DNA of 64,000 nucleotides from Helicobacteraceae bacterium (GCA_013138865.1 WTBY01000033.1:489-64488), one strand, 5' to 3'; counted from the first letter of the stretch, positions 1 through 64,000 are shown. The notes: generated by a model from the letters alone, not told the origin. Translations and numbers: made by a program.

Positions 1-417
1 TTTGATTATACAACTAACAATGATGAGCACAATGGGTATATAAAATTAAATTTACTTTTCGATTCTAATTCTAAAGATGAAATTATTCAAAAACTAATTT
101 TAACTTCTAAAAATAATGCAGTAAATGGTTCTCTTAAAAGAGTTAGTGAACGAATCTTTAAATTAACTAAATATCAAATAAGTAAAAAATTGATTGATTC
201 AATTCAATCTGAAATTTTTGATAAAAGGAATTCAATTGTTCATGAATCTGAAAACCATATGATAAAAAAAGAGAATATTGAAAGTTATTTTCAACTAACT
301 GAAAAATATTTATTTGAATTGGGTAAAGCATGTAAAAAAATTGGTGCTCCATACCTTGATCAAGCGAACTGGTTAGAAAAACCTAACAAAAACGAGGAGA
401 CCAATAGTTTACCCTAG
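1..417 (+). CDS. C-terminal part of a HEPN-like domain protein (5' end outside window)
   Basis: Frame 1 is open from base 1 to the stop at 415-417, so the listed 190..417 ORF is only the tail. The translation contains KRNSIVH, which matches the R-N-x3-H (Rx4-6H) HEPN motif, in a helical context. Confidence 0.45.
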   Translation, partial: FDYTTNNDEHNGYIKLNLLFDSNSKDEIIQKLILTSKNNAVNGSLKRVSERIFKLTKYQISKKLIDSIQSEIFDKRNSIVHESENHMIKKENIESYFQLTEKYLFELGKACKKIGAPYLDQANWLEKPNKNEETNSLP

Positions 418-802
418 CGGGAAAATTATTGCTTATGATAAACGTTAAGTTGCTAAAGCACTTACTTTTGGAACATAAAATACTCATATTAGTTTTACGT
501 GTTCCACAAAGTGTTCAAAAAGTAAAAACTACAAAGTTCCATAAACATTAAGGGATTATGGAACAAATAAAGTGTGCTTTTAAATTATATATTTAAAGCT
601 TTATCCAATCTTCCTTCAAAAAATATAGCCAGCTGTGAAAGTGTTATAGATTTTTATTTAATGAAATTAGGTAAAAAACTTAATTTCAAACCCCCGAAAG
701 TTTCATTAAGTCACAAATACCTATAAATATTTCAAGAGAAGAAAAGCTACTTTAAATAACTACTAGGGTAAAGTAATCTAAATTTATCTAAGAAGGTGTA
801 GT

Positions 803-1027
803 ATGATTGAGTTTATGAAAAAAGCTGTTGATTGGGTTTTACAAAAAGAGCAAGAGGCAGCTCAGGAGTGTCATATTAGCGTTGTTGATGTTGATAAGCA
901 GATAGAAACTATGCAGAATAAAAAAGATAGTATTACAGCTCAGTACAGTGAAAATATTGAAGAGATTGACCATGTTTTAGGTCGCTTAGAGAGTATTAAA
1001 AAAAGTGCAAATAAGTGTACTAAATAA
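803..1027 (+). CDS. small hypothetical coiled-coil protein
   Basis: 74-aa ORF with AAGGTG 5 nt upstream of the ATG. No recognisable motif. It ends just before the fumC start. Confidence 0.3.
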
Positions 1028-1028
1028 C

Positions 1029-2426
1029 ATGAGTTCTCAATATCGTATAGAAAAAGATACTATGGGCGAAATTAAAGTTCCAAAAGATCTCTATTGGGGA
1101 GCACAAACGCAACGTTCAATAGAGAATTTTGCGATCGGTGAAGAGAAAATGCCTTATGAGATCACTCGTGCATTTTCATACTTGAAAAAAGCTGTCGCAC
1201 TTGTAAACAAAGACCTTGGCAAGCTAGATAAGAAAAAAGCAAATGCAATCGCGTCAGCTGCTGATGATATGTTAGCTGGTAAGTTAGACGGAAACTACCC
1301 TTTAGTTGTATGGCAGACGGGTTCAGGTACTCAGTCAAATATGAACAACAACGAAGTTTTAGCATCTCGTGCGACAGAGATACTTGGAGGAGACTTTAAA
1401 AAAGAGAAGTTAGTTCACCCTAACGATCATGTAAATATGTCTCAAAGTTCTAATGACACCTACCCTACTGCACTGCATGTTGCTTCTGTGATCGCAGTTG
1501 AAGAGCAACTTCTTCCTGCAATTAAAAAGTTAAAAAAGACACTGAAAAAAAAGTCGAAAAAGTTTGAAAAAATTGTTAAAATAGGTCGTACTCACTTACA
1601 AGATGCAACACCTATAACACTAGGTCAAGAGATTAGCGGTTGGGTGGAGATGCTTAAAAAATGTGAAAAGATGGCTAAAACTTCACTTAAAGATGTACGA
1701 GAGTTAGCACTAGGTGGAACAGCCGTAGGAACTGGCCTAAATGCTCATCCAGAACTAGGTAAAAGAGTCGCAAAAAAATTGAGCTCTCTTACTGGACATA
1801 AGTTTATTACTGCACCAAATAAGTTTCACTCACTAACTTCACATGATGCACTTGTTTTTGCTCATGGGGCACTAAAAGCACTAGCCGCTGATATGATGAA
1901 AATAGCTAACGATGTTCGCTGGTTAGCTTCAGGTCCACGTTGTGGTATAGGCGAAATAGAGATCCCAGCTAATGAGCCTGGAAGCTCCATCATGCCAGGA
2001 AAAGTAAACCCTACTCAAGCCGAAGCTGTAACCATGGTTGCATGTCAAGTTATGGGAAATGATGCAACGATCGGCTTTGCGGCAAGTCAAGGTAACTTTG
2101 AGTTAAATGTTTTTAAACCTGTGATCGCGTACAACTTTTTACAATCAGTAAGACTTTTAAGTGACTCTATAATCTCTTTTAACGATCACTGTGCGGTTGG
2201 AATAGAACCAGTCAAAGAGAAGATAGACTATTATTTAAATGAGTCATTAATGCTAGTAACGGCACTTAACCCACACATAGGTTATGAAAATGCAGCCAAA
2301 ATAGCTAAGAGCGCACATAACAATAACTCTACTTTAAAAATTGAAGCTGTAAAGTTAGGTTTTCTAACAGAAGAAGAGTTTGATAAGTATGTAGTACCTA
2401 AAAATATGACAACACCAAAAGTATAA
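1029..2426 (+). CDS. fumC: class II fumarate hydratase
   Basis: [13 protein letters not shown] signature and the full-length fumarase/aspartase pattern ([21 protein letters not shown]). The start is moved to the in-frame ATG giving [18 protein letters not shown]. Confidence 0.95.
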
Positions 2427-2482
2427 GATCATAAATAACAGTGTACAATATAAAAATTTATTTATTAAAATAGGAAAATGTT

Positions 2483-3352: not shown

Positions 3353-4546
3353 CTATATCTTCTTGCCACTATAAAGAACAGGTGTAAACTTCCAAGCCCA
3401 CAATATAAACATAACCAACCACAACGCTAAAGAGATATCAAATAAGAAAAATAACTTATGGTTAATGCTAACCCCTATAGAGAAAATAAAACGCGCTATT
3501 ACGACCACTTGAGTTAAGTAAAATACTTTTAGTATAAAGCTAGAAGCATGAGGTGGTTGACCTGAGTGACCAAGTGTAACACGCGTTCCAAAGCCTATAA
3601 GCATAGTAGTTATGAAACCAAGTGCAACAAGGTGAGTTTGTGCATAAACAAAACTACTACCACTAAGTAACTCTACAAGCCCAACAACAGCTCCAACTCC
3701 AAACGCGATCGGAAGCCACCACAGTGCTACATGAAGTATTTTCAGTATTTCAGGTGCTTGTTTATAATTTAGATCCCATCTTTTAAACTCTTTAAAAATT
3801 ATAAATGCAAGAGTTGCATCTACTGCTATGCTGAAATAACTCATAGCTAAAACAGTCCCAACTACCTTTAGAACTAAAAGTTTAAAAACTAATGGCAAAA
3901 ACTCTTCATTTTTCTCAGCAAATGAGTGTGAGAAAAAAGGAACCATTCTTTGTGCTACTGAAAGTGTTAAGAGTGTCAAATAGAGTGTAAAAGCTACAGA
4001 TGTAGCAAAGTGAGGTAAATCTAAAAAGATCTCTAAAATAGCCATAAAATTCAGTAAAACCCCTGCGCTAAGTGCTATTAAGATCCATTTTTGATCGTAC
4101 ATTTGAGGAGAGTTTGAGTTGTTGTAAATGCTAAAAAGCTTATACCAAAACATAGATATACCAGCAAGTAGAAACAGCATACCAACTACTAAAAGCTCGC
4201 TACTAACAAAAGCTCCACCAACATAAAGAAGCCCACCTATATTTAAAAGAGCGAATGTCTTTAAATAATAAGATTTTTCTATAACTTCACTTTGACAAAA
4301 ACGAGGAAATGTAGTATATAAAAAGCCTATAAATAGTTGAGTAAATAGAATGTAGATCATAGAGTATGAGTGAAAGTCTATCGGTGTGACAGTTAAAATT
4401 GCACTACCTTTAAAGAGTAGTTTGTAAGCCACTCCAAATACGATCATAAGAGCGATCGCCCATATAACTCCAAAAAGAAAAAATGGTTGGTGTACTTGAG
4501 AGAGAAAATAGTTCTCTTTTTTAGCTTTAGTCTGAAAATTTTGCAT
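3353..4546 (-). CDS. NnrS-family polytopic membrane protein
   Basis: About 12 predicted TM helices in 397 aa. The N-terminal FFLFGV pattern and overall layout are typical of NnrS. Confidence 0.7.
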   Translation of the reverse strand: MQNFQTKAKKENYFLSQVHQPFFLFGVIWAIALMIVFGVAYKLLFKGSAILTVTPIDFHSYSMIYILFTQLFIGFLYTTFPRFCQSEVIEKSYYLKTFALLNIGGLLYVGGAFVSSELLVVGMLFLLAGISMFWYKLFSIYNNSNSPQMYDQKWILIALSAGVLLNFMAILEIFLDLPHFATSVAFTLYLTLLTLSVAQRMVPFFSHSFAEKNEEFLPLVFKLLVLKVVGTVLAMSYFSIAVDATLAFIIFKEFKRWDLNYKQAPEILKILHVALWWLPIAFGVGAVVGLVELLSGSSFVYAQTHLVALGFITTMLIGFGTRVTLGHSGQPPHASSFILKVFYLTQVVVIARFIFSIGVSINHKLFFLFDISLALWLVMFILWAWKFTPVLYSGKKI

Positions 4547-4578: not shown

Positions 4579-5040
4579 CTATAAGAGTTTTAAAATACTC
4601 TTCTTATTCATTTTACGTGCAAAATCTTTTGCAGTTAATCCTTTGTCTTCAACAGCCTCTTTATCTACCCCAGAGTCTAAAAGTTTTTTAACCATTTCGG
4701 CTCTGCCATAACAAGTAGCCGCCATAAGTGGAGTAAAACGACTTCGTCTATCTGTTTTACTTACGTCTATACCCTGCTCTAGTATATACTCAAAAAGCAC
4801 AATGTTGTTATATGTGATTGCATTGTCAAAGATAGATACACCCTGATCATCAAACTCGTAAATATTTGCACCACTCTCAACAAGAAGCATAATAAGTTCA
4901 CTATCACAGCGAAGACGTAGTGCGATCGCTAATACACTCTCTTCGCTCTCATTTGCTTCATTAAGATCTGCACCATCTTTTATATACTTTTTTGCACCTA
5001 AATAGTCATTATTTGTTAAAAGTTTGATCCATTCATTCAT
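4579..5040 (-). CDS. ankyrin-repeat protein
   Basis: Repeated ankyrin-like units (TPLMAATCYGRAEMVKKLLDSGVD, SVLAIALRLRCDSELIMLLVESGANI). Confidence 0.8.
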   Translation of the reverse strand: MNEWIKLLTNNDYLGAKKYIKDGADLNEANESEESVLAIALRLRCDSELIMLLVESGANIYEFDDQGVSIFDNAITYNNIVLFEYILEQGIDVSKTDRRSRFTPLMAATCYGRAEMVKKLLDSGVDKEAVEDKGLTAKDFARKMNKKSILKLL

Positions 5041-5101: not shown

Positions 5102-6298
5102 ATGAAAATTATTGAAACTACGGACGAATTTAAGTCTTGTGTTGAAAACATCAAAAAAACTAAAGGTTACAAAGACCCAATAGGCTTTGGTATTTGTAGA
5201 GTAGACCTAGGTCAAAAGAACTTAGACAAAACTCTTCAAGCTACTTACCCACTTGTAAACTGGGGAGAGAACTTTGGTAGTGCTGCTGTTTTCATAAACG
5301 CTTTAGCAGAACAAGGTGTAAATGTAGACTGTTCAGCTAATGAAGTTGTTTGTGACATAAACTCAGAGTTTTTACTAACAGCTCTTAATACATTTGCTCC
5401 ATATGTAGACGAAGCTTTTGATGATGCTCATAAAAATATTCAAGTTGTTGCAACTCTTTACTCTCTAATAAAACAAAATGGTATGTTAGATGGCGAATTT
5501 AAAGTAGTATTTATTTTTGCAGACGAAGCAGTTGAGAGTGTTGAAGCAGCTTATTTAAAACTTTACGTACTTTCTCAAGCTAAAGTAGAGTTAAGAGGAA
5601 TTAACCTTAATGGTGCTTTTGGTGCTCTACCAAATGTTGCATGGTCTCAAGGAAGTCCGATCGAGCTTGACTACTTAAGAGAGAACGAAATAGAGCTTAA
5701 GCTTGCAAATGAATACCCACATATCGACTTTGTAGATAAATTTCCACGTTTTTTACAACACATAATTCCACAAGACAACACTCGTATTTTAGAGACTTCA
5801 AAAGTACGTTTTGGTGCACAACTTGCAGGTGGAACTACTGTTATGCCTGGTGCTAGTTACATTAACTTTAATGCTGGAACAACTGGTAGTGTTATGGTTG
5901 AAGGTCGTATCTCTTCATCTGCAATCGTAGGTGCAGGTAGTGACGTTGGTGGTGGTGCTTCTATACTTGGTGTTTTAAGTGGTACAGATGGTAACCCAAT
6001 CTCGATCGGTAAAAATACTCTTTTAGGTGCTAACTCTACTTGTGGTATTCCTCTAGGTGACGCTTGTATTATTGACGCAGGTTTAGCTATTTTAGAGGGA
6101 ACAAAAGTTGGAATTTACCCAGCAGAACTTACTAAGATCCAAGAAGCAAACACAGGCTGCACAATAGCTGGAGAAGTTTTTAAATGTAAAGACTTAGCAG
6201 GACTTAATGGTCTTCACTTTCGTGCTAACTCTATGACTGGAGAGATCACAGCATCTCGTTCAACTCGTGAAATTAAGCTTAATGCGGATCTTCACTAA
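5102..6298 (+). CDS. dapD: tetrahydrodipicolinate N-succinyltransferase, long epsilonproteobacterial form
   Basis: C-terminal left-handed beta-helix hexapeptide repeats (GAGSDVGGGASILGVLSG, IGKNTLLGANS). Size and layout match the roughly 390-aa Campylobacter-type DapD. Confidence 0.75.
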   Translation: MKIIETTDEFKSCVENIKKTKGYKDPIGFGICRVDLGQKNLDKTLQATYPLVNWGENFGSAAVFINALAEQGVNVDCSANEVVCDINSEFLLTALNTFAPYVDEAFDDAHKNIQVVATLYSLIKQNGMLDGEFKVVFIFADEAVESVEAAYLKLYVLSQAKVELRGINLNGAFGALPNVAWSQGSPIELDYLRENEIELKLANEYPHIDFVDKFPRFLQHIIPQDNTRILETSKVRFGAQLAGGTTVMPGASYINFNAGTTGSVMVEGRISSSAIVGAGSDVGGGASILGVLSGTDGNPISIGKNTLLGANSTCGIPLGDACIIDAGLAILEGTKVGIYPAELTKIQEANTGCTIAGEVFKCKDLAGLNGLHFRANSMTGEITASRSTREIKLNADLH

Positions 6299-11698: not shown

Positions 11699-12865
11699 TT
11701 ATTTGTAAGTTTGTACGAAAGTCTCTATTCGTTTAATACCCTCACGGATACTCTCTATATTTGTAGCAAAAGAGAATCTAAAGTAACCCTCACTACCAAA
11801 GCCAACACCAGGGACAACTGCAACACCAGTTTCACTTAAAAGTTTTTTACAAAATTCCATAGAGTCATTTGTAACCTCTTTAACGTTTACAAATAGATAA
11901 AATGCACCATCTGGTTTTAAAACGCTTAATTTATCTACTTTGTTGAATAGCTCGACTGCTTCATCACGACGAGCTTTAAAAGCTTTTCTCATCATCTCTA
12001 TATCAGCGTCAGCACTTCCATCAAGTCCTGGGATCGCACACTTTTGAGTGATAGAGTTTATGTTTGATGTACTTTGACTTTGAAGTTTTTTTGTAGCTTT
12101 TACAAGTTCTACGTTTGCAGATGCCATATAACCAAAACGCCAACCAGTCATAGCAACCGACTTACTAAGACCATTTATAGTGATCGTTCGCTTAAACATA
12201 TCTTCACTTATAGAAGCAACTGAGACAAACTCTCCATCATAAATTAACTTCTCATACATCTCATCAGAAGCTACAAAGATATCTGTACCTTTTAACACTT
12301 CAGCTAGAGATTCTAATTCAGCTTTAGAGTATACGGCACCTGTTGGGTTAGAAGGTGTTGTTAAGATAAGAAGTTTAGTCTTTGGTGTGATCGCACTTTT
12401 TAACTGCTGCTCAGTTATTTTAAAGTTACTAGTATCATGAGTTTCGATCTCAACTGGAGTTCCACCACAATACTTAACTAACTCAGGGTAAGTAACCCAA
12501 AAAGGTGCAGGAATAATAACCTCATCACCCTCTTCTATTAATGCAGAAAAAAGGTTAAAAAGTGAGTGTTTAGCACCATTGTTAACTATAATCTGATTCG
12601 GTGCATATGTTAAGTTGTTGTCTCTTTTTAACTTATTTGCGATCGCCGCTTTAAGTTCAGGGATACCATCAACCGCAGTATATTTAGTAAAACCGTCATT
12701 TATAGCTTTAATAGCTTCATCTTTTATAACTTGTGGTGTGTCAAAGTCGGGCTCACCTGCTGAGAAGCTAAGAATATCTTTACCTTCTGCTTTTAACTCA
12801 CCTGCTAAGGTAGTGATCGCTATTGTTATTGATTCTGATAGAGTGTTTATACGTTTAGTAAGCAA
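11699..12865 (-). CDS. aspC: class I PLP-dependent aspartate aminotransferase
   Basis: Full-length aminotransferase class I pattern, including the SKS lysine motif (NGLSKSVAMTGWRFGY) and PSNPTG. Confidence 0.85.
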   Translation of the reverse strand: MLTKRINTLSESITIAITTLAGELKAEGKDILSFSAGEPDFDTPQVIKDEAIKAINDGFTKYTAVDGIPELKAAIANKLKRDNNLTYAPNQIIVNNGAKHSLFNLFSALIEEGDEVIIPAPFWVTYPELVKYCGGTPVEIETHDTSNFKITEQQLKSAITPKTKLLILTTPSNPTGAVYSKAELESLAEVLKGTDIFVASDEMYEKLIYDGEFVSVASISEDMFKRTITINGLSKSVAMTGWRFGYMASANVELVKATKKLQSQSTSNINSITQKCAIPGLDGSADADIEMMRKAFKARRDEAVELFNKVDKLSVLKPDGAFYLFVNVKEVTNDSMEFCKKLLSETGVAVVPGVGFGSEGYFRFSFATNIESIREGIKRIETFVQTYK

Positions 12866-15386: not shown

Positions 15387-15560
15387 GGAGTTTTTAATAA
15401 CCCTAAACTCTTTAAAAAAACCACTTCAGCTTTGTTGCAAAACAGTTCCGATCGCATACACTTGAAAACTATTTTAAAACTCATAACCTAGTTGTGCATC
15501 AAACCTATAGCTGTAGGAGTGGTAGTAGTTTTTTCATTTTGCTTGTTTCCATTTTTTGGT

Positions 15561-15566: not shown

Positions 15567-15570
15567 GCTC

Positions 15571-15735: not shown

Positions 15736-15746
15736 TTTAACATAGT

Positions 15747-15871: not shown

Positions 15872-17269
15872 ATGATAAACTTTAAAAACTACTCTCAAGA
15901 GACTTTTGAGAGTGCAAAAACACAAAACAGACCTATTTTTATTTTTGTTGGTTGTAGTGCAAGTGTGCACTCTTTAAACATTGAGAAAGAGCTTTTTACA
16001 AACGAGCAAATAGTCTCTTTTTTAAACGCACACTTTGTTTGTGTTAAAGTTGACAAAGATGAGCGGACAGAGCTTGATCTTTACTACCAAAAAGCCTACA
16101 AACTTTTAAACAATGCGAATGGAGGTTGGCCTCTTTTAGTATTTGCTACACCCTCAAACCAACCTTTTCACGCTAAAACTTATATGCCAACACACTCTCA
16201 AGATAAACTTTTAGGTTTTTACGAGTTTTGTGAAATTATAGTTGATAAAATAGAGAGTAAAGATAGTGACTTTTTTAAAAATGCAGATGAAGTAGCAGAG
16301 CATCTTACTCTTAGCGATCGCAACAAAGAGGCTACACGTTTAAGTTTGATACTTACTCAGAGTTACATAGCACAAGCAAAAGAGAATTTTGATGAGAATA
16401 GTGGTGGTTTCTTCGCAGATCCAAAGTTTCCAAACAGCTCAATCGTAAATACGCTTTTAGACTTTTATGAGAAAGAGAGTAACGCTGAAGTATTAAACAT
16501 GGTTACTAAAACTTTAAGCATGTTAAATAGAACTGCCTCTAAAAATGCTAAAGGCTTTTGGTACCGTCACGCTTACTCTGAAGAGTTTACACTCTACGAT
16601 CAAGCTCTTTTAGTTCAAACATTTGTAAAAGCTTACAAGATTTTAAAAAATGAAGAGTACAAAGATGTTGCTTTTAAGTGTTGTGAATTTATGCTAGAGA
16701 ACATGAGTGATGATGGACTATTTTACCTGTATGAAAACGACAAAAGAGTTATAACTTCACAAAACTCTATGATGATTAGTGCTCTTTTTAAAGTAAGTGA
16801 GTTAGACGAAAAGTATCTTCCGATCGCACTTAACTCACTTGAGAAGCTTAGTGCTAAAATGTATGTTAACTCAACTCTTTACCACTACGAAAATGTAAAG
16901 GGCTTTTTAGAGGACTTTGCATACTTTGGAGTGGCTCTTATAAATGCATATGAAAAAAGTGGTGATGAGATCTACTTTATTCAAGCACAACTAATAGCAA
17001 ACTCTGCTTTGAGTAATTTTTATGATAATGGTAGATGGTTTTACACAAAAACTAAATTTAGTATAGATGGTGACATTTATGATTCTCACATGCCAAGCTA
17101 CATAGGTGCTATTTGCGAGCTAATGGTAGCTTTAGCAGAAAAAGAGCCTAAATATATTAGCTTTACTAAGAAGAGTATTGAGTACTATTCTTACTCATTA
17201 GCAAGAGATATGATCTACTCTTCATACCTTTTTAAAGAAGCGATGAGTATAATCGCGAATAAATTATAA
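15872..17269 (+). CDS. thioredoxin-fold/DUF255 (YyaL-like) protein with alpha-toroid C-terminal domain
   Basis: The N-terminal pattern KPIFIFVG...FVCVKVDKDERTELD resembles the DUF255 thioredoxin-like domain, although the CxxC is not conserved. ATG at 15872 is preferred, 8 nt after AGGAG. Confidence 0.65.
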   Translation: MINFKNYSQETFESAKTQNRPIFIFVGCSASVHSLNIEKELFTNEQIVSFLNAHFVCVKVDKDERTELDLYYQKAYKLLNNANGGWPLLVFATPSNQPFHAKTYMPTHSQDKLLGFYEFCEIIVDKIESKDSDFFKNADEVAEHLTLSDRNKEATRLSLILTQSYIAQAKENFDENSGGFFADPKFPNSSIVNTLLDFYEKESNAEVLNMVTKTLSMLNRTASKNAKGFWYRHAYSEEFTLYDQALLVQTFVKAYKILKNEEYKDVAFKCCEFMLENMSDDGLFYLYENDKRVITSQNSMMISALFKVSELDEKYLPIALNSLEKLSAKMYVNSTLYHYENVKGFLEDFAYFGVALINAYEKSGDEIYFIQAQLIANSALSNFYDNGRWFYTKTKFSIDGDIYDSHMPSYIGAICELMVALAEKEPKYISFTKKSIEYYSYSLARDMIYSSYLFKEAMSIIANKL

Positions 17270-17293: not shown

Positions 17294-18427
17294 ATGTGTT
17301 ATTACGAAGTACTAGAAGTTACAAAGAGTGCAGACAAAGCGACTATTAAAAAAGCTTACAGAAAAATGGCGAAGAAGTGGCATCCAGACAAAAACCCTGG
17401 TGATGAAGAAGCAGAAAAAAACTTTAAAGTGTGTAACGAAGCTTACCAAGCTTTAAGTGATGATCAACAACGCTCTATTTACGATCGTTATGGTAAAGAG
17501 GGTCTTCAAGGTGGAATGGGTGGCGGTGGTCGCTCAAGTGGAGGCTTTGGTGGTTTTGATGACCTTGGATCAATGTTTGAAGAGATGTTTGGTGGAGGCG
17601 GCGGCGGTGGTCGTGGACGTTCACGTCAGTCTCGTGCAGATATGGACAACTTCGATCTTGACGCAGAAGTTAGAATGAACATTAGTTTCAATGAAGCAAT
17701 TTTTGGTTGTGAAAAGAATATTGACTTTCGTTATAAATGTTCTTGTAAAAAGTGTAAAGGAACAGGTGCTAAAGATGGCAAAGAGTCAACTTGTTCTCAG
17801 TGTGATGGACATGGTCAAGTCTATATGCAACAAGGTTTCATGCGAATTCAACAAGCTTGTCCAGTTTGTCATGGTGCAGGTAAAATGGCAACTGATAAGT
17901 GTGGTGAGTGTCGTGGAAATGGTTACACTGAAGAGAAAGAGAGTGTAAGCGTTAAAGTTCCTGCTGGAGTTGATAGCGATAATAGACTTCGTGTTTCAGG
18001 TAAAGGTAACAAAGGTAAAAAAGGAAACCGTGGAGATCTTTACACTACATTTAATGTAGAGAGTGACTCACACTTTCAACGTCATGGAAATGATGTCTAC
18101 TTAGAAGTACCCGTTTTCTTTACACAAGCAGTTCTTGGTCATACGATCACAATCCCTTCACTTCGTGGTGAGTTGGAGTTAGAACTAGACAAAGGTACTA
18201 AAGACAAGGCACAGTTTACATTTTCAAACGAGGGTGTTCCAGATGTTCATGGACGTGGAACTGGTAACTTAGTTGCACAAGTTACACTTACTTACCCTAA
18301 AAAACTAACAGCTGAACAAGAGTCTCTTTTAGTTCAATTACAAGAGAGTTTTGGTGTTGATGCTAAGCCATATGAGAGTAGTTTTGAGAGTGCATTTGAC
18401 AAAGTTAAGAACTGGTTTACAAAGTAA
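17294..18427 (+). CDS. dnaJ: molecular chaperone DnaJ
   Basis: J-domain with HPD ([11 protein letters not shown]), a Gly-rich linker, four CxxCxGxG zinc-finger repeats and a C-terminal substrate-binding domain. Confidence 0.9.
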
Positions 18428-19099: not shown

Positions 19100-19462
19100 G
19101 AAAGCTAAAGGAAGAAGACCTATTAGACAACCAATAATTATACCTATAGTCTCAGCTGCTATAAACATATTATGATGACCTAAATCTTCTTCAGTTACTT
19201 TACCAAAAGAGTTATAAACCATACGAGCTACTAAACTACCAGAGAGTACTCCAACTGCATCGCTTAATGTGTTACCTAGACCTGCACTAAACATACTACT
19301 AAAACCAAAAGTCTCTTGGATCCATGTGTCGATCGCAGAGCCTGCAATAACCATAATCGCATTATCCATGAAACCAAAAACAATCATACCTATCATTACA
19401 GCAAAAAAGTTTTTACCAAACATCACTTTAAATAGATTAAAATCCTCTTTTTCTTCACTCAT
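19094..19462 (-). CDS. small integral membrane protein
   Basis: 122 aa with three predicted TM helices. No confident family call. Confidence 0.5.
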   Translation of the reverse strand: MSEEKEDFNLFKVMFGKNFFAVMIGMIVFGFMDNAIMVIAGSAIDTWIQETFGFSSMFSAGLGNTLSDAVGVLSGSLVARMVYNSFGKVTEEDLGHHNMFIAAETIGIIIGCLIGLLPLAFL

Positions 19463-48251: not shown

Positions 48252-48264
48252 AATATCTCCTTAC

Positions 48265-49374: not shown

Positions 49375-49387
49375 ATTAAACCTTTAT

Positions 49388-50752: not shown

Positions 50753-50755
50753 AAA

Positions 50756-52636
50756 TTAACCTTGTTGTAGCTCATCTGCCATAACAGCTAACTCTTCAAC
50801 ACCATCACCAATATGTGAAATTGTCTCTATAATTAACTCACTAGCTTTTCTTGATTCCATAGCATTTCTTGCCGAAAGCTCAACTGCTTTTTGGATCTCT
50901 GTAACACCAACCATACCTTGGTTTAATCCTTCAAGATTTTGATCATTTACAGATTTAAGTCCCGCGTAACGATCTATTAAATCTACTAACATATCTGAAA
51001 TTTTATCTATATCAGTAAGAAGAGAGTCTATTCTTGTATGCTCTTTTCCTTGATCACTTAAAAGTTGACCCCAGTCATTTCTAACTGTATCAATTTCAGC
51101 ATTCATAGACTCAATAGTATCATTAATTTTTTCAGTATTTGACTCAGAATCTTTTGCTAAGTTACGAATATCAGCTGAAACAACTGCAAAACCTTTTCCA
51201 AACTCACCAGCACGTGCAGCCTCAATAGAGCCACTGATTGCAAGCATATTTAACTGAATAATAGAGTTAGAAATATTTCCAACTGTTTTGTCAACATTTC
51301 TAGTCTCTTTAACAATAACTTCTATCTCATTATTAGCAGAGTTACCCTCATTTATAGAATTTTGAAATGCCTCTTTAATTTTTACGATTGTAGATTTTAC
51401 TGAAAGGAATGAAGTTTTAACTAAATCGAAGTTACGACGAGCAATATTAATAAGTTCATCAATATCTTTAGCCGCAGATAGACCTATCTCTAAGTTATCT
51501 TTATTTTTAAGTGCGCTTTGGTTTGTCGTAGTAGAACTAGCTTCAATTTGGTTAAGAGCACTAGTTACATCTACAAGAGCAGATTGGATCTCTTCCATAC
51601 TACCACCAATAGCGTCAGCACTACTAGCAATCTCTTCAGCAGATTTCATAGAGTCTGTTGAGTATTTAAGCTCTTCTGCTAAGTTTGAAAGCTCTTTAAT
51701 ATCGTCTTCTGTTTGAACCAATGCAGATGACTGAACATCTATTCCATTTAAAGTTTTTTCAACTGAAAGTGCAATTGAGTGAGAAGAGTCAGCAATATCT
51801 TGACTTCCATCATTTACACTTTGAGCAGCTTCACCTAAAGTAGTAGTATAAGAGTGAATACTTCTAGCCGCTTCAACTGAATAGATTGCTATTTTAGTTA
51901 GTTCTTCCATTTTAAGACTTAACTCTGTACCAGTTTCACCAGTTGTAGAGATTATGTCAGTAGTACCAACGATACTTTTTATAATATCATCTATACTACT
52001 TTGAATTTTATTTACTAACTCAGAGATAAATTCTGCATTTTTCTCACTCTCACCTGCAAGTGCACGAGTTTCATCAGCAACAACTGCAAAACCTTTACCA
52101 TGCTCTTTAGCACGACTTGCTTCGATCGCAGCATTAAGTGCAAGAAGATTAGTCTGATCAGCAATTTTAGCAATAAAACCAACAGCTTCACCAATATTTT
52201 CAGAAGATAGTTTTAACTCTTCTGATTTTTTAGAAGATGCTTTTGCAACTTCTACTGCACTGTTCATACGACCTACACTAGAATTAATTGTACTAACAGC
52301 ACCTATAATACTATCACCAGTAGCAGATGTTGAACTAATAACAGTATCAATTGTAGAGTTCATACGATTTATGTTCGCGTTAATAGCTTTTACGTTTTTA
52401 AGAGCTTGTTCACTTGCTCCACTATTCTCTTCAGCTGCAGTTGCAATTTGCTCCATTGAAGACTTAAGTTCTTCGATCGCACTTACACTCTCTTGAGCGT
52501 TGTTTAATATATTAGATGCAACACCTGCAATACCTTCACTAATTTGCTGTTGTTTAGCAAGCGTTCTTTGGCGACGCTTATTATCACTTGCTCCACTTGA
52601 AACTACCGCTGAGTTAGATTTTTTAACTAATGCCAT
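50756..52636 (-). CDS. soluble methyl-accepting chemotaxis protein with two signalling hairpin tips (DosM-like)
   Basis: No TM segment. Tip 1 is QTNLLALNAAIEASRAKEHGKGFAVVADETRALA (aa 161-194). Tip 2 is QLNMLAISGSIEAARAGEFGKGFAVVSADIRNLA (aa 461-494). Confidence 0.9.
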   Translation of the reverse strand: MALVKKSNSAVVSSGASDNKRRQRTLAKQQQISEGIAGVASNILNNAQESVSAIEELKSSMEQIATAAEENSGASEQALKNVKAINANINRMNSTIDTVISSTSATGDSIIGAVSTINSSVGRMNSAVEVAKASSKKSEELKLSSENIGEAVGFIAKIADQTNLLALNAAIEASRAKEHGKGFAVVADETRALAGESEKNAEFISELVNKIQSSIDDIIKSIVGTTDIISTTGETGTELSLKMEELTKIAIYSVEAARSIHSYTTTLGEAAQSVNDGSQDIADSSHSIALSVEKTLNGIDVQSSALVQTEDDIKELSNLAEELKYSTDSMKSAEEIASSADAIGGSMEEIQSALVDVTSALNQIEASSTTTNQSALKNKDNLEIGLSAAKDIDELINIARRNFDLVKTSFLSVKSTIVKIKEAFQNSINEGNSANNEIEVIVKETRNVDKTVGNISNSIIQLNMLAISGSIEAARAGEFGKGFAVVSADIRNLAKDSESNTEKINDTIESMNAEIDTVRNDWGQLLSDQGKEHTRIDSLLTDIDKISDMLVDLIDRYAGLKSVNDQNLEGLNQGMVGVTEIQKAVELSARNAMESRKASELIIETISHIGDGVEELAVMADELQQG

Positions 52637-52652
52637 AATATTTACCTTTTTC

Positions 52653-53527: not shown

Positions 53528-53640
53528 AATGGCCTCCTGATTGGTATAAATTCTAAACATTTTTTAACTAGAAAAAATATAAAGTTCGAAATAATATCTA
53601 AATTAAATAAAAATTTCAACATCAAGTAAAACTTCTTAGC

Positions 53641-53646
53641 TATAAT
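53641..53646 (+). promoter_or_regulatory. candidate -10 box TATAAT for the Rrf2-flhA operon
   Basis: TATAAT lies 32 nt upstream of the ATG, with AGAGG between them. Confidence 0.4.
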
Positions 53647-53677
53647 CACAATAAATATTAATTTATATAGAGGTTTA

Positions 53678-54088: not shown

Positions 54089-54092
54089 GTCC

Positions 54093-56321
54093 TTGGCAAC
54101 TTTAAAAAATAATTTTCTTCACTATGGAGCTGTAGCTTCTGAATTTTTAGGTAAGACTAAAGACCTTGGTGTTGTCGGCTTTGTTATGGCCGTACTTGCG
54201 ATTATTATCGTTCCACTTCCAAGTATTGTCCTTGACTTTTTATTAGCTATTTCACTCTCTGTTGCTGTTTTAATTCTGCTTATGGCACTCTATGTTCCTA
54301 AGCCAACCGATCTCTCTACATTCCCCTCACTACTTCTAATCATTACGCTATTTAGGCTCTCTTTAAATGTGGCTACTACAAGAATGATCCTAAGTGATGG
54401 TGCTAAAGGTCCTGAAGCAGTGAGTGAGATCATTATTAGTTTTGGTAACTTTGTTGTTGGTGGTAACTTCGTTATAGGTATCATAGTTTTTTCGATCTTA
54501 GTGATTATTAACTTTATGGTAATTACTAAAGGTTCGACAAGGGTTGCAGAGGTTGCAGCTAGATTTACACTAGATGCAATGCCAGGTCACCAAATGGCTA
54601 TTGATGCGGATCTTAATGCTGGTATTATTACTGATGAAGAAGCAAAAGCCAGTCGTGCTGAACTTTTAGAAAATGCTAACTTTTATGGGGCAATGGACGG
54701 TTCGAGTAAGTTTGTTCAAGGTGATGCTACTGCTGGTATTATCATTACTTTTATTAACATTATTGGTGGTTTTTTGATAGGAATGTTTCAGTTTGATATG
54801 AGTGCAGGTGACGCTGCTTCTACATTTACACTTCTTACGATCGGTGATGGACTTTTAAGTCAAATTCCTGCACTTATAATCTCTACTGCTGTGGGTATTA
54901 TGATGACTCGTGCTTCAACAAGTAAAGATGGAGATAACTTTGCAACGGGCGCTGTTGATCAGCTAATGAGTCAGGCTAGAGTTATTATGATCGTTGGTGC
55001 GATTATGCTTATGTTTGCATCTGTTCCTGGACTTCCTACATTATCACTTGGCTTTTTAGGTCTTCTATTTTCAGGTTTAGGTTTTGTTCTTTATAAACAA
55101 GACAAAGGGGAACCTTTCTTTAAAAGACTAGAAGAACAAGATATTACACCCGGCAAACCTGGTGAAAAACCAAAAGCTGGTGCTAAAAGTAAAGGCAAAA
55201 GTAAAGGCAAAGATGCTGAAGAAGAGAAAAAACCTGAAAAAACAGCTGCAGAGATCCAAAAAGAGGAAGAGAGTGCACTAAACGATATTTTAAAGATAGA
55301 GATGTTAGAGCTTACACTTGGTTACCAACTAATACGCTTAGCTGACAAATCACAAGGTGGGGATCTTCTTGAGAGAATCCGTTCTATGAGAAGAAAAATA
55401 GCTACCGACTTTGGCTTTTTAATGCCTCAAGTACGTATACGTGATGACCTTCACTTAGGACCTGATCAGTATGAAGTTAAACTAAAAGGTGTTGGGATTG
55501 GTGATGGAACTATAAAAGTTGAAAAACTACTAGCAATGGATAGTGGTATGGCAACTGGTGATGTTTTTGGGGAGCCAACAAAAGAGCCTGCTTTTAATCT
55601 TGACGCTTTATGGATTGAGCCTGATCTAAAAGAAGATGCTATTATGAATGGCTATACAGTTGTTGATCCATCAACTGTAATCTCTACACATATGAGTGAG
55701 CTAATTAAGCGTAATGCTGAAGATATGTTAACTAGGCAAGAGACTCAAAATCTTATAGATAAAATTAAAGAAGACTACCCTGTTGTTATTGATGATGTTT
55801 TAAGTGTTGCAAAAATTGGTTTAGTTCAACGTGTATTTAAATCACTTCTTCATGAACAAATTCCTCTTAAAGATATGCTTACTATTTTAGAAACTATTGC
55901 CGATATTGCTGAATATACGAAGAGTGTTGAGTTTATTACAGAGCAAGTGCGTACACGTCTTTCACGTATTATTACTAATATGTACGCAAATCATGAGGGT
56001 GTTATTAAACTTTTAACGTTTGATACTCCTAGTGAACAGAGAATTTTGGAGACTATAACTGAGCAAAATGATGTTGTTCACCTAGGTCTAAATGTTGGGG
56101 AAATTAATAATATAATTCAAGCAACATCACAAAAAGCTACAGAGGCTCTTCAACTAGGAATATCACCTGTAATAATTATAGTTGATCCTAAACTACGTCG
56201 TCCATTGGCGGAAATTTATGAACGCTTCTCTTTAGATGTTATAGTTCTCTCTCACGCAGAGATCAACTCTACAGCTAAGTTTGAAGTTGTTGGCTCTATT
56301 AGTGTAGAAAATAATATATAG
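54093..56321 (+). CDS. flhA: flagellar type III export protein FlhA
   Basis: Eight-TM N-domain with the FHIPEP motif region (ARFTLDAMPGHQMAIDADL), a Lys-rich linker and a cytoplasmic C-domain. TTG start 4 nt after the Rrf2 stop. Confidence 0.95.
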   Translation: MATLKNNFLHYGAVASEFLGKTKDLGVVGFVMAVLAIIIVPLPSIVLDFLLAISLSVAVLILLMALYVPKPTDLSTFPSLLLIITLFRLSLNVATTRMILSDGAKGPEAVSEIIISFGNFVVGGNFVIGIIVFSILVIINFMVITKGSTRVAEVAARFTLDAMPGHQMAIDADLNAGIITDEEAKASRAELLENANFYGAMDGSSKFVQGDATAGIIITFINIIGGFLIGMFQFDMSAGDAASTFTLLTIGDGLLSQIPALIISTAVGIMMTRASTSKDGDNFATGAVDQLMSQARVIMIVGAIMLMFASVPGLPTLSLGFLGLLFSGLGFVLYKQDKGEPFFKRLEEQDITPGKPGEKPKAGAKSKGKSKGKDAEEEKKPEKTAAEIQKEEESALNDILKIEMLELTLGYQLIRLADKSQGGDLLERIRSMRRKIATDFGFLMPQVRIRDDLHLGPDQYEVKLKGVGIGDGTIKVEKLLAMDSGMATGDVFGEPTKEPAFNLDALWIEPDLKEDAIMNGYTVVDPSTVISTHMSELIKRNAEDMLTRQETQNLIDKIKEDYPVVIDDVLSVAKIGLVQRVFKSLLHEQIPLKDMLTILETIADIAEYTKSVEFITEQVRTRLSRIITNMYANHEGVIKLLTFDTPSEQRILETITEQNDVVHLGLNVGEINNIIQATSQKATEALQLGISPVIIIVDPKLRRPLAEIYERFSLDVIVLSHAEINSTAKFEVVGSISVENNI

Positions 56322-56338
56322 TAAAAAAGGTAAAAATT

Positions 56339-57424
56339 ATGTCAAAAACTGTTCATCATCTATCTCACACTGACCTTGATGGTTATTCGGCTCAACTTAT
56401 CATGAAATATACACCCTACTCTATGAGTTACTACAACGCTAACTATGGTGCTGAAGTTGGTGAGAGAATATCTCAAATATTAGAAGCGATCAAAGAGCAA
56501 AAAAATGATGCTACTATATTAATAAGCGATCTTAACCTTACAATGGATGAAGCAAAATCACTAAATAAAGAAGTTGATCGCATAAATGAGACTTCTAAAA
56601 TGAGTGTTACTATACTTCTTCTTGATCATCATGGTAGTGGTGAGGACTGCGCTAAAAAGTTTGAGTGGTACTATCTTGACACTCACAGATGTGCAACGAA
56701 AATAGTTTACGACTATGTAAAAGTAAACTTTGAGTTTGATGAACCAACATGGATGTGTGAATATGTAAATGCGGTAAATGCAGTTGATCTATGGAAACAA
56801 GAAGAGGTAGAAAACTTTGAGTATGGAAAAGTTTGTATGCGTCTTATTTATGAAACACGTGAACTTAACCGAGTTATGTTTGCATCTTCTGATCATGAGT
56901 ACAAAACTCAACTACTAATAAATGCTGCGCAAATGATTAATCATGATAATGCGAATATAGCTCTTGATGAGTCTATACACAGAATGAAAAAAGAGTTCTT
57001 TAAAGTAGATAAAGATGACACACTTGACAATTTAGCTACTAATAAAATAGTTAAACTATTAAGTGAGCAAAAAGCTAATAACACAATTTACTACAAAAAT
57101 TACAAAGGCTATATGAGCTATGGTGTTGGTAATACTTCGATCGTTGGTAATGGTTTTTTAGTTGCTAATGATGATTATGACTTTATAGTTGATGTAAGTA
57201 GTCGTGGAACTATGGGTTTTAGAGCAAACAACAAAGTTGACGTATCTCTGATCGCAAAAGAGTTAGGAAATGGTGGTGGACATCCAAATGCAAGTGGTGG
57301 TAGAATGCAAGGCTTTAAAGAGCAATTTCGCTACGACAAAGCAAAAGCACAAGTTCTTAATGCGATAGACAAAGCAGAAGCAACTGCTGGTAAATTAGAG
57401 TTTAAAAAAGAAACGTTATCTTAA
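56339..57424 (+). CDS. DHH/DHHA1-family phosphoesterase (NrnA-like)
   Basis: DLDG, LLDHHG (DHH) and GGGHPNASGG (DHHA1) motifs. Confidence 0.8.
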   Translation: MSKTVHHLSHTDLDGYSAQLIMKYTPYSMSYYNANYGAEVGERISQILEAIKEQKNDATILISDLNLTMDEAKSLNKEVDRINETSKMSVTILLLDHHGSGEDCAKKFEWYYLDTHRCATKIVYDYVKVNFEFDEPTWMCEYVNAVNAVDLWKQEEVENFEYGKVCMRLIYETRELNRVMFASSDHEYKTQLLINAAQMINHDNANIALDESIHRMKKEFFKVDKDDTLDNLATNKIVKLLSEQKANNTIYYKNYKGYMSYGVGNTSIVGNGFLVANDDYDFIVDVSSRGTMGFRANNKVDVSLIAKELGNGGGHPNASGGRMQGFKEQFRYDKAKAQVLNAIDKAEATAGKLEFKKETLS

Positions 57425-61938: not shown

Positions 61939-61947
61939 GGAATAAAA

Positions 61948-62181
61948 ATGAAAATAGAAGTTTTAGGAACAGGTTGTCCAAAATGCATCACTTTAGAGAG
62001 AGTTGTCAAAGAGGCAGTTGCAAAGAGTGGTAAGTTTGCTCAGGTTGAAAAAGTAGACGATATTATGAAAATAATGGAGTACCAAGTAGTAAGTACTCCT
62101 GGACTTGTTATAAATGGGAAAGTAGTTAGTACTGGTAAAGTTTTGAGTGTAAATGAAGTAGTAGCACTTATAAATGAGTAA
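61948..62181 (+). CDS. thioredoxin-fold redox-active disulfide protein 2 family
   Basis: 77 aa starting MKIEVLGTGCPKC. This is a typical partner of DUF318 permeases. Confidence 0.75.
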   Translation: MKIEVLGTGCPKCITLERVVKEAVAKSGKFAQVEKVDDIMKIMEYQVVSTPGLVINGKVVSTGKVLSVNEVVALINE

Positions 62182-62454
62182 ATTTGTAAGAAACTGTTTT
62201 AGCACTTCTTGAATCAAACTCACTGTTCGCTCTTGGTGTTATGATAAGCTTCTCAATTTTAGGTTTCATTGTAGCAAAGTTTGGTGGCTTTTTCTCAATA
62301 GCACCTATCTGGGCATATATTTTGGCTGCAATCTTTAGTATAATAATTGGTCTATATGCTTGGGGTATCTTTGGTTCAATAGATAAATCATCAATAATGA
62401 TAAGGCTTATAATTTTAAGAGTTGTACCCACTTAGTTGTGGGTCACAATAGATA

Positions 62455-62913
62455 TTACGCAACTGGTATGTAAGCATATCCTCTATTTTGCCACTTTATA
62501 AGTCCATAGTACTTATTTACAATAGGTGTAACTTCTTTAAATAGTGACTTTGCAGTTATATTTCTAGCAGCCATACCTTTAGAACATATTTCAAAAACTA
62601 CATCGTAATTTTCTATTAACTCTTTTATAGCAGTATGAGTTTTATGCTGTTGTTCACCATAAAGAGACTTTTCATTTTTAAAAGGTGAGTTCTCTAGATC
62701 TTCTATAAAATATTTATATGCACTTCCAGAGATCACAACTGTAACTTTTAATTGCTCGTTCTCTTTTTTAAATGTTGTATGCAAAAATTTAATGTTCTTA
62801 AACACTCTTTTTTCTATTGTTTTTATTTTACCACTTGTTAAGTCAAAGACAACTTTTTGCACTCCTGCAAAAAGAGTTAAGTTTAGTAAAATTATTAAAA
62901 GTAAAATTTTCAT
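62455..62913 (-). CDS. secreted DsrE-like family protein
   Basis: Signal peptide. Layout (VVFDLTSG..., VVISGSA..., FEICSKGM) resembles the DsrE/COG1416 fold. Confidence 0.45.
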   Translation of the reverse strand: MKILLLIILLNLTLFAGVQKVVFDLTSGKIKTIEKRVFKNIKFLHTTFKKENEQLKVTVVISGSAYKYFIEDLENSPFKNEKSLYGEQQHKTHTAIKELIENYDVVFEICSKGMAARNITAKSLFKEVTPIVNKYYGLIKWQNRGYAYIPVA

Positions 62914-62921
62914 CTATTATC

Positions 62922-64000
62922 CTAATAATTCACAGCTACTTTGTAAGTAGGATCATCCTCTTCGTAAGAACAATATGGTGCAGCTTTTTTCAAAATAGCT
63001 TTACAGTCTGCACTTAAGTGACGAAGTAAAATTTGTCTCCCACTATCTTCATACTTACCTATTAGGTTGTCAATAGCTTCAACTCCACTACTGTCCATTA
63101 CACGAGTATTTTTAAAGTCTATAACAATTTTTGGAGGATCATTTCTTAGATCAAAATTATCATGAAACGTTGTTGCACTTGCAAAAAATAGTGGGCCATC
63201 AAGTTCATAAACTTTAGTTCCATCATTTTCAGTATGATCTCTAGCTATAATTTTTGCATGTTCCCAAGCAAAAACAAGAGCAGAAATAATAACACCTGAA
63301 ATAACCGCGATCGCAAGGTCAAACACTACAGTAATAATAGTTACTACAACCATAACAAATGCATCACTCTTAGGCATAGTTTTTAAATGAGAAAAACTTG
63401 ACCACTCAAAAGTTCCAATACTTACCATAAACATAATACCAACAAGAACAGCAACAGGAATAACATTTAAAACATCAGTAAGAGAGACTACAAGAATCAT
63501 AAGACCAACAGCTGCAACAAATGAACTTAAACGTCCAAGACCACCTGAGCTAAAGTTAATGATTGATTGACCAATCATTGCACAACCTGCCATTCCACCG
63601 AAAAAACCACAAGTAACATTACCAGTTCCTTGAGCTATACACTCTTTGTTACCACTACCACGAATTCCACTCATCTCATCTAAAACAGTTAGAGTTAAAA
63701 GTGACTCTATTAGTCCTACAAGAGCAACAAGAACAGCGTAAGGTAATACAACAAAAAATGCATCCATAGAAAATAGTGTTGTAGGGATACCAAAAGATGG
63801 TAGTTGTCCTTGAAACTGAGAAAGATCCGTTAGTGAACCTACAAGAAGAGTATTAAAATCTAAAAGATATACAGCTAACGTTAAGCCAACGATCGCAACT
63901 AAACCAGAAGGAATAGCTTTAGTAACTTTAGGTAAAGAGTACATAATAGCCATAGTAACTAATACAAGTACATACATCATAGCACCCTGCCCCTCAAAAA
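62922..64000 (-). CDS. SulP-family anion permease, C-terminal part with STAS domain (5' end outside window)
   Basis: TM core plus C-terminal STAS (LDGPLFFASATTF, VIDFKNTRVMDSSGVEAI). The frame stays open upstream of the listed Met to the window edge. Confidence 0.85.
   Translation of the reverse strand, partial: FEGQGAMMYVLVLVTMAIMYSLPKVTKAIPSGLVAIVGLTLAVYLLDFNTLLVGSLTDLSQFQGQLPSFGIPTTLFSMDAFFVVLPYAVLVALVGLIESLLTLTVLDEMSGIRGSGNKECIAQGTGNVTCGFFGGMAGCAMIGQSIINFSSGGLGRLSSFVAAVGLMILVVSLTDVLNVIPVAVLVGIMFMVSIGTFEWSSFSHLKTMPKSDAFVMVVVTIITVVFDLAIAVISGVIISALVFAWEHAKIIARDHTENDGTKVYELDGPLFFASATTFHDNFDLRNDPPKIVIDFKNTRVMDSSGVEAIDNLIGKYEDSGRQILLRHLSADCKAILKKAAPYCSYEEDDPTYKVAVNY

Follow-up and report, generated by a model that had tools for sequence, protein, structure and literature searches.

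Background

HIP1, the highly iterated palindrome GCGATCGC, has been described as a feature of cyanobacteria only (Xu 2018, PMC5861425). Its observed/expected (O/E) ratio there is 55-228 (Elhai 2015, PMC4390886) or 15-300 (Xu 2018), it appears to be selectively conserved (Xu 2018) and it co-occurs with methyltransferases that recognise GATC and CGATCG (Elhai 2015). A preprint reports a more than 100-fold increase in transformation with methylated HIP1 (Kamoku and Nielsen 2024). Here we analyse a stretch of 64 kb ('the window', part of a single metagenomic contig, WTBY01000033.1) from a sulfur-oxidising member of the Campylobacterota in which this octamer and its core, CGATCG, occur far more often than expected. 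Because none of about 80 sampled related species shows the excess, a HIP1-type genome feature seems to have originated here a second time and independently.

The window shares several properties with the cyanobacterial system. The consensus octamer and its CGATCG/GATC core are identical, and the O/E ratio of GCGATCGC (67 by a zero-order model, about 180 by a first-order model and 57 when synonymous codons are shuffled) falls inside the published cyanobacterial range. Further common features are enrichment in all reading frames, the use of non-preferred codons, the lowest tolerance of changes at central positions and a density that varies by gene class. It differs in that the host is an AT-rich member of the Campylobacterota and not a cyanobacterium, and in having 141 octamers per Mb compared with 300-2700 per Mb in cyanobacteria, a density comparable only to that of 'weak HIP1' cyanobacteria (for example, Cyanothece PCC 7822 with 111 per Mb). 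The statistical unit in the window is the hexamer (609 per Mb, or 0.61 per kb), the octamer being favoured by opportunity-normalised counts. Its non-coding DNA holds a single CGATCG in 3.7 kb and is not enriched in GATC. The trait belongs to one lineage and is not phylum-wide (it is found in none of 80 or more relatives), and the DmtA (GATC) and DmtC or m4C (CGATCG) methyltransferases are not among the 58 ORFs (open reading frames) of the window.

Other systems are similar in part. The uptake signal sequences (USS) of Pasteurellaceae and the DNA uptake sequences (DUS) of Neisseriaceae are also short intragenic motifs, present at roughly 1 per kb (0.61 in the window and 1.14 in its housekeeping genes); like the window motif, they accumulate against codon preference, have enriched near-matches and are biased towards core genes, but they are non-palindromic and 9-12 nucleotides long, whereas the window motif is a palindrome of 6-8 nucleotides. 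Within the Campylobacterota, CtsM of Campylobacter jejuni and its RAATTY sites provide a precedent for methylation-dependent recognition of self DNA, although no report describes RAATTY as over-represented or driven. In Escherichia coli, Dcm and Vsr drive a methylation site above expectation, with an effect well under 2-fold. There, as in the window, a palindrome is raised by a process acting on DNA (CCWGG excess, CTWGG deficit); it is the target of a methyltransferase, as the window palindrome may be, but the window shows no deficit of the deamination product (TGATCG/CGATCA stands at 2.85-fold) and an effect of about 12-fold. Finally, the avoidance of GATC in Sulfurimonas concerns the same tetramer at the same codon positions (Ile after a G-ending codon) with the opposite sign: ATC makes up 2.5% of Ile codons after G in these relatives and 54% in the window.

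HIP1 has been unexplained for three decades and a second case, if true, would be a natural comparison, in a distant phylum and in a genome of opposite base composition whose sister lineages avoid GATC. Whatever genes or properties the two cases have in common, such as competence machinery, a repair enzyme or a methyltransferase for CGATCG, would be strong candidates for the cause. The motif here is young and unsaturated (20% of possible coding sites converted, with clear differences between gene classes), which would allow rates of gain and loss to be obtained, and hence selection to be separated from biased repair. The motif could also mark native as opposed to recently acquired DNA in this lineage.

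Excess of CGATCG over composition and codon usage

Counts refer to a single strand unless stated otherwise. The window has a GC content of 32.5% and includes nine copies of GCGATCGC (Table 1), 39 of CGATCG (those of the tandem CGATCGCGATCG at 34169-34180 included) and 316 of GATC. Related words are TGATCGC (17 copies), GCGATCA (14), CGATCGG (7) and CCGATCG (3). An earlier note, made by eye, had listed the same nine octamers, CGATCGCGATCGC at 34169-34181, 35-40 copies of CGATCG and many TGATCGC and CGATCGG variants, and had estimated zero-order expectations of about 0.15 octamers and 5 hexamers. The machine count returned the same picture, with expectations of 0.135 and 5.1. Dinucleotide-preserving shuffles give 0.07 octamers and 1.2 hexamers, and an order-3 Markov model 5.3 CGATCG. 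Under a first-order model CGATCG is the hexamer ranked first for over-representation and GCGATCGC is the top octamer by z (18 observed and 0.10 expected on both strands); GATC is the first-ranked tetramer.

The maximal-order Markov comparison that had been proposed to check these counts gave a divided answer. CGATCG is again the top hexamer at order 4 (78 observed and 40 expected, both strands), while the octamer adds nothing over its 6- and 7-mers, with 18.3 and 16.6 copies expected at orders 5 and 6 and 18 observed (both strands). CGATCG is therefore the statistical core, since the sub-words fully predict the GCGATCGC count.

Protein sequence and codon usage do not account for the excess. 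The 58 ORFs defined cover 93% of the window, and synonymous codons were shuffled within each gene. This codon null predicts 3.2±1.7 CGATCG, compared with 38 observed in ORFs (z≈21), 0.31 GCGATCGC compared with nine, and 170 GATC compared with 308. A stricter null, which also holds every dinucleotide at the junction of codon position 3 and the following position 1, predicts 2.8 CGATCG and 0.2 GCGATCGC. When all hexamers are ranked by the codon null, only GCGATC/GATCGC and CGATCG are far out, and CGATCG is the sole hexamer palindrome with a large z. The excess thus survives Markov, codon and junction nulls, including the corrections for codon and dinucleotide usage that the earlier note had called for, and is not an artefact of codons, amino acids or dinucleotides: CGATCG is about 12-fold above the prediction from protein and codon usage and the excess is real. 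The signature is opposite to that of restriction-site avoidance (GATC 1.8-fold, CGATCG 11- to 13-fold). We regard the descriptive part of our explanation, a graded, frame-independent and lineage-specific enrichment, as nearly certain.

Palindromes in general behave differently from GATC. Of the 16 tetramer palindromes, 12 fall short of the codon null, among them GGCC (0.43), TCGA (0.55), GCGC (0.66), AATT (0.67), ACGT (0.75) and CTAG (0.76), and only GATC (O/E 1.80) is strongly in excess. The hexamers ATCGAT (0.29) and AACGTT (0.39) are also depleted. AGAG/CTCT and AAAGAG/CTCTTT are present at about 1.6- to 2-fold the codon null; CTCTTT/AAAGAG is the top hexamer in many relatives too (for example, loci L009, L006 and L021) and is a family-wide signature.

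Anatomy of the motif

Enrichment increases in the order GATC, CGATC, CGATCG, GCGATCGC. With the junction-preserving null, CGATCG stands at 13-fold, CGATCA/TGATCG at 2.85-fold and GATC without a C flank at 1.1- to 1.7-fold. Variants that break the GATC core range from 0- to 0.96-fold (25 observed in total, 39.4 expected); one of them, the inner-C product CGATTG/CAATCG, is at 0.72-fold, which is not significant (z -1). The flanks of the hexamer favour G at -1 and T at -2, which gives the consensus TGCGATCGCA. Flank information at the window sites revealed no extended consensus past position -3. That the motif might belong to some longer repeat or mobile element was considered and rejected, as flank information is at most 0.04 bits by position -4.

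The share of possible sites that have been converted is 14% with no Ala flank, 23-29% with one and 67% in Ala-Ile-Ala (six of nine); the flank odds ratios are about 3 on either side. The HIP1 octamer thus appears to be the optimum, because opportunity-normalised conversion peaks with G...C flanks, a preference that Markov models hide; the motif had been recognised as HIP1 in the earlier note and this preference for the octamer is in line with that. A graded palindrome of this kind is expected for a dimeric reader or writer.

The pressure acts on DNA

Most of the 38 coding sites (28) are read NCG-ATC-G, seven are read NNC-GAT-CGN and three CGA-TCG. Each phase is enriched alone (28 observed and 1.42 expected, 7 and 1.65, and 3 and 0.10, respectively), and the single intergenic site in 3.7 kb compares with 0.023 expected. 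Coding opportunity differs between phases, and the phase bias tracks it: of the 137 [APTS]-Ile-[GAVDE] tripeptides, 28 have been converted (20%), and of the 24 places where x-Asp-Arg would allow a site, seven (29%).

Codon choice follows the motif. Ile is encoded by ATC in 54% of cases where the preceding codon ends in G and in 7% of cases elsewhere, and when an NCG codon stands before Ile, the Ile codon is ATC in 50 of 62 instances. Across the 16 codon families ending in a pyrimidine (Y), a preceding G shifts only ATY (C-ending fraction 0.66 compared with 0.12), and before C only GAY remains T-ending (C-ending 0.16 compared with 0.38-0.59 in the other families). Both deviations are in the direction that makes GATC, and bare GATC owes most of its excess to the xxG|ATC phase. 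ATC and NCG, both rare codons, mostly appear where they form the motif. Six of the nine Ala-Ile-Ala tripeptides are encoded GCG-ATC-GCN and carry GCGATCGC, so that six of the nine octamers are read in this way (in NnrS, the ankyrin protein, AspC, LysC, PurH and SulP), as had been read by eye. The pressure acts on DNA and not on protein, since all three phases are enriched and only the codon families that make GATC shift; the same cause had been proposed earlier from the use of disfavoured codons.

A separate codon-context rule operates in the window. The two-fold Y-ending codons (AAY, CAY, GAY and TAY) become C-ending before a codon that starts with T (0.60-0.69 compared with 0.12-0.28). This NNC|T rule makes GATT/AATC the most under-represented tetramer (O/E 0.50) and is unrelated to GATC. 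Avoidance of GATT was considered as a cause of the GATC excess and rejected, since GAC|T follows the general rule of all NAY families while G|ATC is confined to Ile.

The excess is absent from the relatives sampled

The host belongs to the Sulfurimonadaceae (Campylobacterota). In protein collections, no match to its PurH exceeds 86% identity and none to its KdsB 82%; the best matches are from Sulfurimonadaceae, Sulfurimonas and Sulfuricurvum metagenome-assembled genomes; the closest PurH (86%) is on a contig of 1.7 kb. HobA and MutS2 are consistent with the Campylobacterota. A literature search gave no paper tying CGATCG to this phylum, in agreement with the earlier statement that HIP1 was not known there.

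Repeating the count in relatives, as had been suggested, involved 80 species-level purH loci, with GATC O/E calculated by a first-order Markov model. GATC O/E ranges from 0.08 to 1.95, and CGATCG is the most over-represented hexamer in none of the 80. In the nearest relatives (loci L081, L082 and L083) GATC is neutral and CGATCG is as frequent as expected, and in a PurH tree the nearest neighbours of the window are GATC-neutral or GATC-avoiding. By the codon null, CGATCG reaches 85 copies compared with 58.7 expected in the 47%-GC relatives (O/E 1.45), 64 compared with 59.2 in the intermediate group (1.08) and 0 compared with 22.7 in the GATC-avoiding group (0). The hexamer excess is lineage-specific because these ratios do not exceed 1.45.

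The GATC-avoiding group includes most low-GC Sulfurimonas (loci L016-L077; for example, L047, L049, L071 and L032), with GATC O/E of 0.08-0.4. GATC is the rarest of the 256 tetramers in these loci, the absence of CGATCG extends over 317 kb, and the 2.5% share of ATC after G-ending codons is the mirror image of the window. This suggests a long-standing GATC restriction system in the clade. In the GC-richer loci L001, L008, L012, L025 and L048 the top hexamer by first-order z is GATATC, probably a GAT-ATC codon-pair effect.

Gene order around purH is otherwise almost without synteny among the 80 relatives. An S15-Rrf2-FlhA-hypothetical block is common to the window (53252-57424), Sulfurimonas sp. 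HSL-1716 (CP147918.1) and an ENA scaffold (10756-14894 in L082 and 10857-14997 in L083). In those relatives kdsB adjoins the block; in the window it is 33 kb away.

Sites have been gained

With such poor synteny, the genes that can be aligned with relatives are purH, PFK (phosphofructokinase), KdsB, S15, Rrf2, FlhA, SulP and one hypothetical gene. Of these, PurH, KdsB, FlhA, SulP and the hypothetical gene supplied the 12 window sites that were compared. At ten of them the nearest relatives have a sequence other than CGATCG. The other two, in the conserved PurH tripeptides A-I-E and T-I-E, are shared and are also CGATCG in 13-15 GC-richer relatives. The synonymous differences at the ten are from AT to GC (ATA>ATC, ACY>ACG, TCY>TCG and GAC-AGA>GAT-CGC), and the replacements are A-V-C-I>A-I-A-I, [A/S]-D-K>H-D-R, A-I-I>A-I-V and A-T-A>A-I-A. 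About half of the motif sites are on amino acid replacements, which is near background given protein identities of 65-85%. To judge from these alignments, new sites arose by both synonymous and non-synonymous changes.

Density varies along the window

The earlier note had described an uneven density, with about 0.8 CGATCG per kb in the first 38 kb, about four sites in the che block and few in two signalling stretches. By exact count, the first 38 kb hold 31 sites (0.82 per kb), the che block (39.7-53.1 kb) four, the stretch 7.7-11.4 kb none and the stretch 25.4-33.4 kb two. For a grouping picked after the data had been seen, the housekeeping genes of the first 38 kb have a density of 1.14 per kb (28 sites in 24.6 kb) and the chemotaxis and signalling genes one of 0.25 per kb (6 in 24.5 kb; p=2e-4). 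The contrast is real and holds after normalising for coding opportunity: NCG-ATC accounts for 23% of NCN-Ile in the housekeeping group and 6-7% in the other (p≈0.001-0.006), and ATC after a G-ending codon for 65% and 38-44%, respectively. Residence time, recombination rate or expression are possible causes.

The chemosensory cluster (39739-53075) encodes a response regulator, a ParA-like ATPase, two CheW-CZB proteins, CheA, two CheY, CheR, a HEAT-repeat protein, CheB, a triple-CheW protein, a methyl-accepting chemotaxis protein (MCP) and a PAS protein. Its GC content at third codon positions is the lowest in the window (0.165 compared with 0.24 in housekeeping genes) and its motif saturation is low.

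Possible mechanisms

The explanation that we prefer is a positive pressure at the DNA level in this lineage of Sulfurimonadaceae, which would create and keep (T)GCGATCGC(A) with its core CGATCG. It runs against the strong AT bias of the genome and recruits the rare codons ATC, NCG and CGC. One or two solitary DNA methyltransferases would recognise the palindrome (candidates are an enzyme of the Dam type, specific for GATC, and one of the PvuI/DmtC type, specific for CGATCG). Once methylated, the site would serve a cis-acting function that leads to the gain and retention of sites, in a HIP1-like manner but from an independent origin. A methylated and positively maintained site is favoured because HIP1, the closest analogue, is tied to methyltransferases, conservation and transformation. 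Taken as a whole, we give this explanation an even chance of being correct; its methylation-linked mechanism, drawn by analogy, is tentative and falls just short of that.

Several observations weigh against it. Bare GATC shows neither an excess in the xGA|TCx phase (1.06-fold) nor any enrichment between genes, where 3.7 kb of DNA hold 7-8 copies for about 7.5 expected. Among the 58 ORFs of the window, the part of the genome to which this check applies, Pfam searches (for nine ORFs also NCBIfam) found no DNA methyltransferase, restriction enzyme or Vsr. The evidence comes from 64 kb of one metagenomic contig, and the closest relative in the collections, with 86% PurH identity, precludes a comparison of site conservation of the type made in cyanobacteria. 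A UDG-family match proved to be an ordinary Ung, a NUDIX match RppH and a MutS-like gene MutS2.

One alternative is an artefact of composition, codon usage, amino acids or translational codon-pair bias, or a chimeric assembly with cyanobacterial DNA. The concentration of coding sites in the NCG-ATC-G phase and of bare GATC in xxG|ATC would fit this, but the nulls that keep amino acids, codon usage and junction dinucleotides fall short more than 10-fold, the other two phases are significant individually, and the phase bias mirrors opportunity. The strongest effect in GATC-avoiding relatives is in the same phase with its sign reversed, and the sites lie in typical Campylobacterota genes (for example, PurH, KdsB and the neighbours of HobA) that are 77-86% identical to Sulfurimonadaceae proteins. 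An artefact is largely refuted and we consider it extremely improbable. Another is retention of relics, in which the frequent CGATCG of a GC-richer ancestor would have been shielded (for example, by N4-methylation) during drift to 32% GC. In ORFs the density (0.64 per kb) matches the 0.63 per kb of relatives with 47% GC, whose value is near codon expectation, two of the five PurH sites are those common to GC-richer relatives, and 7 of 31 CGATCG instances in relatives' purH are kept in the window, compared with 4.3% of control hexamers, though these represent one or two independent sites only. Against this, the ten sites described above are not CGATCG in the three nearest relatives, sites common in the 47%-GC relatives are missing from the window (purH alignment columns 277 and 1426), its PurH has more sites than almost all GC-richer relatives, and its nearest neighbours in the PurH tree are neutral or avoid GATC. 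Simple retention is quite unlikely because sites have been created against the compositional drift.

As a further alternative, Vsr-like short-patch or methyl-directed mismatch repair might convert near-cognates to a functionless CGATCG, a neutral proposal of the type made by Elhai. In its favour, the motif arises through AT-to-GC changes although the genome drifts towards AT, sequences with a broken GATC core show a mild deficit, and Dcm/Vsr in E. coli is a precedent. The outer-C deamination product TGATCG/CGATCA is enriched, however, the opposite of the CTWGG depletion caused by Vsr, and repair bias of the Vsr type is disfavoured for this reason. The inner-C product is reduced only to the non-significant level given above, and the contig has no Vsr gene and only MutS2; Campylobacterota are not generally known to carry MutS1 or MutL. 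We consider neutral repair improbable. Transformation drive has somewhat better prospects, although we still think it unlikely: methylated CGATCG/GCGATCGC would be a self-DNA tag spread by biased uptake and recombination, like USS and DUS, and not by selection at each site. The density of 0.61 per kb is near that of USS and DUS, the excess is concentrated in housekeeping genes and near-cognate variants are enriched too. Methylated HIP1 raises transformation in Synechococcus PCC 7002, and C. jejuni takes up DNA only with RAATTY methylated by CtsM (for example, PMC8468864). A palindrome of 6-8 nucleotides nevertheless carries little information compared with the known uptake sequences, and general family scans recognised no competence genes among the ORFs of the contig. 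By analogy the idea is attractive, because C. jejuni already recognises self DNA by a methylated motif. A broader version, which we put forward as speculative and rather improbable, is that methylated GCGATCGC/CGATCG may be a general 'self' tag for transformation and recombination, independently evolved in an AT-rich lineage of Sulfurimonadaceae, which would spread by molecular drive wherever a pair of GATC and CGATCG methyltransferases meets a competence system. As sister lineages avoid GATC, a switch from restriction target to self tag might then have been caught within one family.

Catalogue of sites

Table 1. Positions and reading of the motif sites in the window, with the state in relatives where compared
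Feature	Position	Strand	Reading and remarks
CGATCG, Lyase_1 (fumarase/aspartase-like) gene	1132..1137	.	GCG-ATC-GGT (A-I-G)
CGATCG, Lyase_1 gene	2068..2073	.	ACG-ATC-GGC (T-I-G)
CGATCG, NnrS gene	3706..3711	.	CCG-ATC-GCG (P-I-A)
GCGATCGC, NnrS	4452..4459	.	Ala-Ile-Ala
GCGATCGC, ankyrin-repeat gene	4922..4929	.	Ala-Ile-Ala
CGATCG, DapD gene	5658..5663	.	CCG-ATC-GAG
CGATCG, DapD gene	6003..6008	.	TCG-ATC-GGT
GCGATCGC, aminotransferase (AspC-like)	12639..12646	.	Ala-Ile-Ala
Sole intergenic CGATCG	15449..15454	.	479-bp spacer 15387-15865; expected 0.023
GCGATCGC, DUF255/thioredoxin gene	16314..16321	.	AGC-GAT-CGC (S-D-R)
CGATCG, DUF255 gene	16821..16826	.	CCG-ATC-GCA
CGATCG, DnaJ	17482..17487	.	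TAC-GAT-CGT (Y-D-R)
CGATCG, TMEM65-like gene	19330..19335	.	GCG-ATC-GAC
CGATCG, KdsB	19612..19617	.	CCG-ATC-GAG; relatives CCG-ATA-GAA (synonymous gain)
CGATCG, KdsB	19707..19712	.	TAC-GAT-CGC; relatives TAY-GAC-AGA
CGATCG, KdsB	20079..20084	.	CTC-GAT-CGC; relatives V-D-D or I-D-N
CGATCG, FolP	20829..20834	.	CCG-ATC-GTA
CGATCG, FolP	20949..20954	.	GCG-ATC-GTA
GCGATCGC, DNA polymerase III delta'-like gene	21696..21703	.	Phase CGA-TCG (R-S)
GCGATCGC, LysC	23296..23303	.	Ala-Ile-Ala
CGATCG, HemW	24523..24528	.	ACG-ATC-GCA
GCGATCGC, HemW	24716..24723	.	Phase CGA-TCG (R-S)
CGATCG, HemW	25224..25229	.	Phase CGA-TCG
CGATCG, PAS-GGDEF-EAL gene	27287..27292	.	GCG-ATC-GTA
CGATCG, sensor histidine kinase	29336..29341	.	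ACG-ATC-GTC
CGATCG, PurH	33916..33921	.	CAC-GAT-CGT (H-D-R); relatives mostly [A/S]-D-K
Overlapping tandem CGATCGCGATCG and flanking C, PurH	34169..34181	.	Holds octamer 34174-34181; A-I-A-I, relatives A-V-C-I
CGATCG, PurH	34640..34645	.	ACG-ATC-GAG; CGATCG at same site in 15 relatives
CGATCG, PurH	34826..34831	.	GCG-ATC-GAG; CGATCG at same site in 13 relatives
CGATCG, phosphofructokinase	37975..37980	.	TAC-GAT-CGC
CGATCG, CheA	43415..43420	.	GCG-ATC-GTA
CGATCG, CheA	44194..44199	.	TTC-GAT-CGC
CGATCG, MCP	52123..52128	.	GCG-ATC-GAA
CGATCG, MCP	52474..52479	.	GCG-ATC-GAA
CGATCG, FlhA	54838..54843	.	ACG-ATC-GGT; relatives ACC/ACT-ATC-GGN (synonymous gain)
CGATCG, 361-aa hypothetical gene	57138..57143	.	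TCG-ATC-GTT; relatives TCC/TCT-ATY-GTN
GCGATCGC, SulP	63307..63314	.	Ala-Ile-Ala; relatives A-T-A
CGATCG, SulP	63890..63895	.	GCG-ATC-GTT; relatives A-I-I
Background tier, 316 GATC sites	1..64000	.	ATC 54% of Ile after G-ending codon, 7% elsewhere

No Rfam family or tRNA gene was found at threshold anywhere in the 64 kb, and the spacer that carries the sole intergenic CGATCG includes no recognised feature. At the tandem site in PurH, the relatives have Cys in 76 of 81 cases and Val in 70 (A-V-C-I). The replacement of this Cys by Ala (TGT>GCG) has changed all three bases of the codon.

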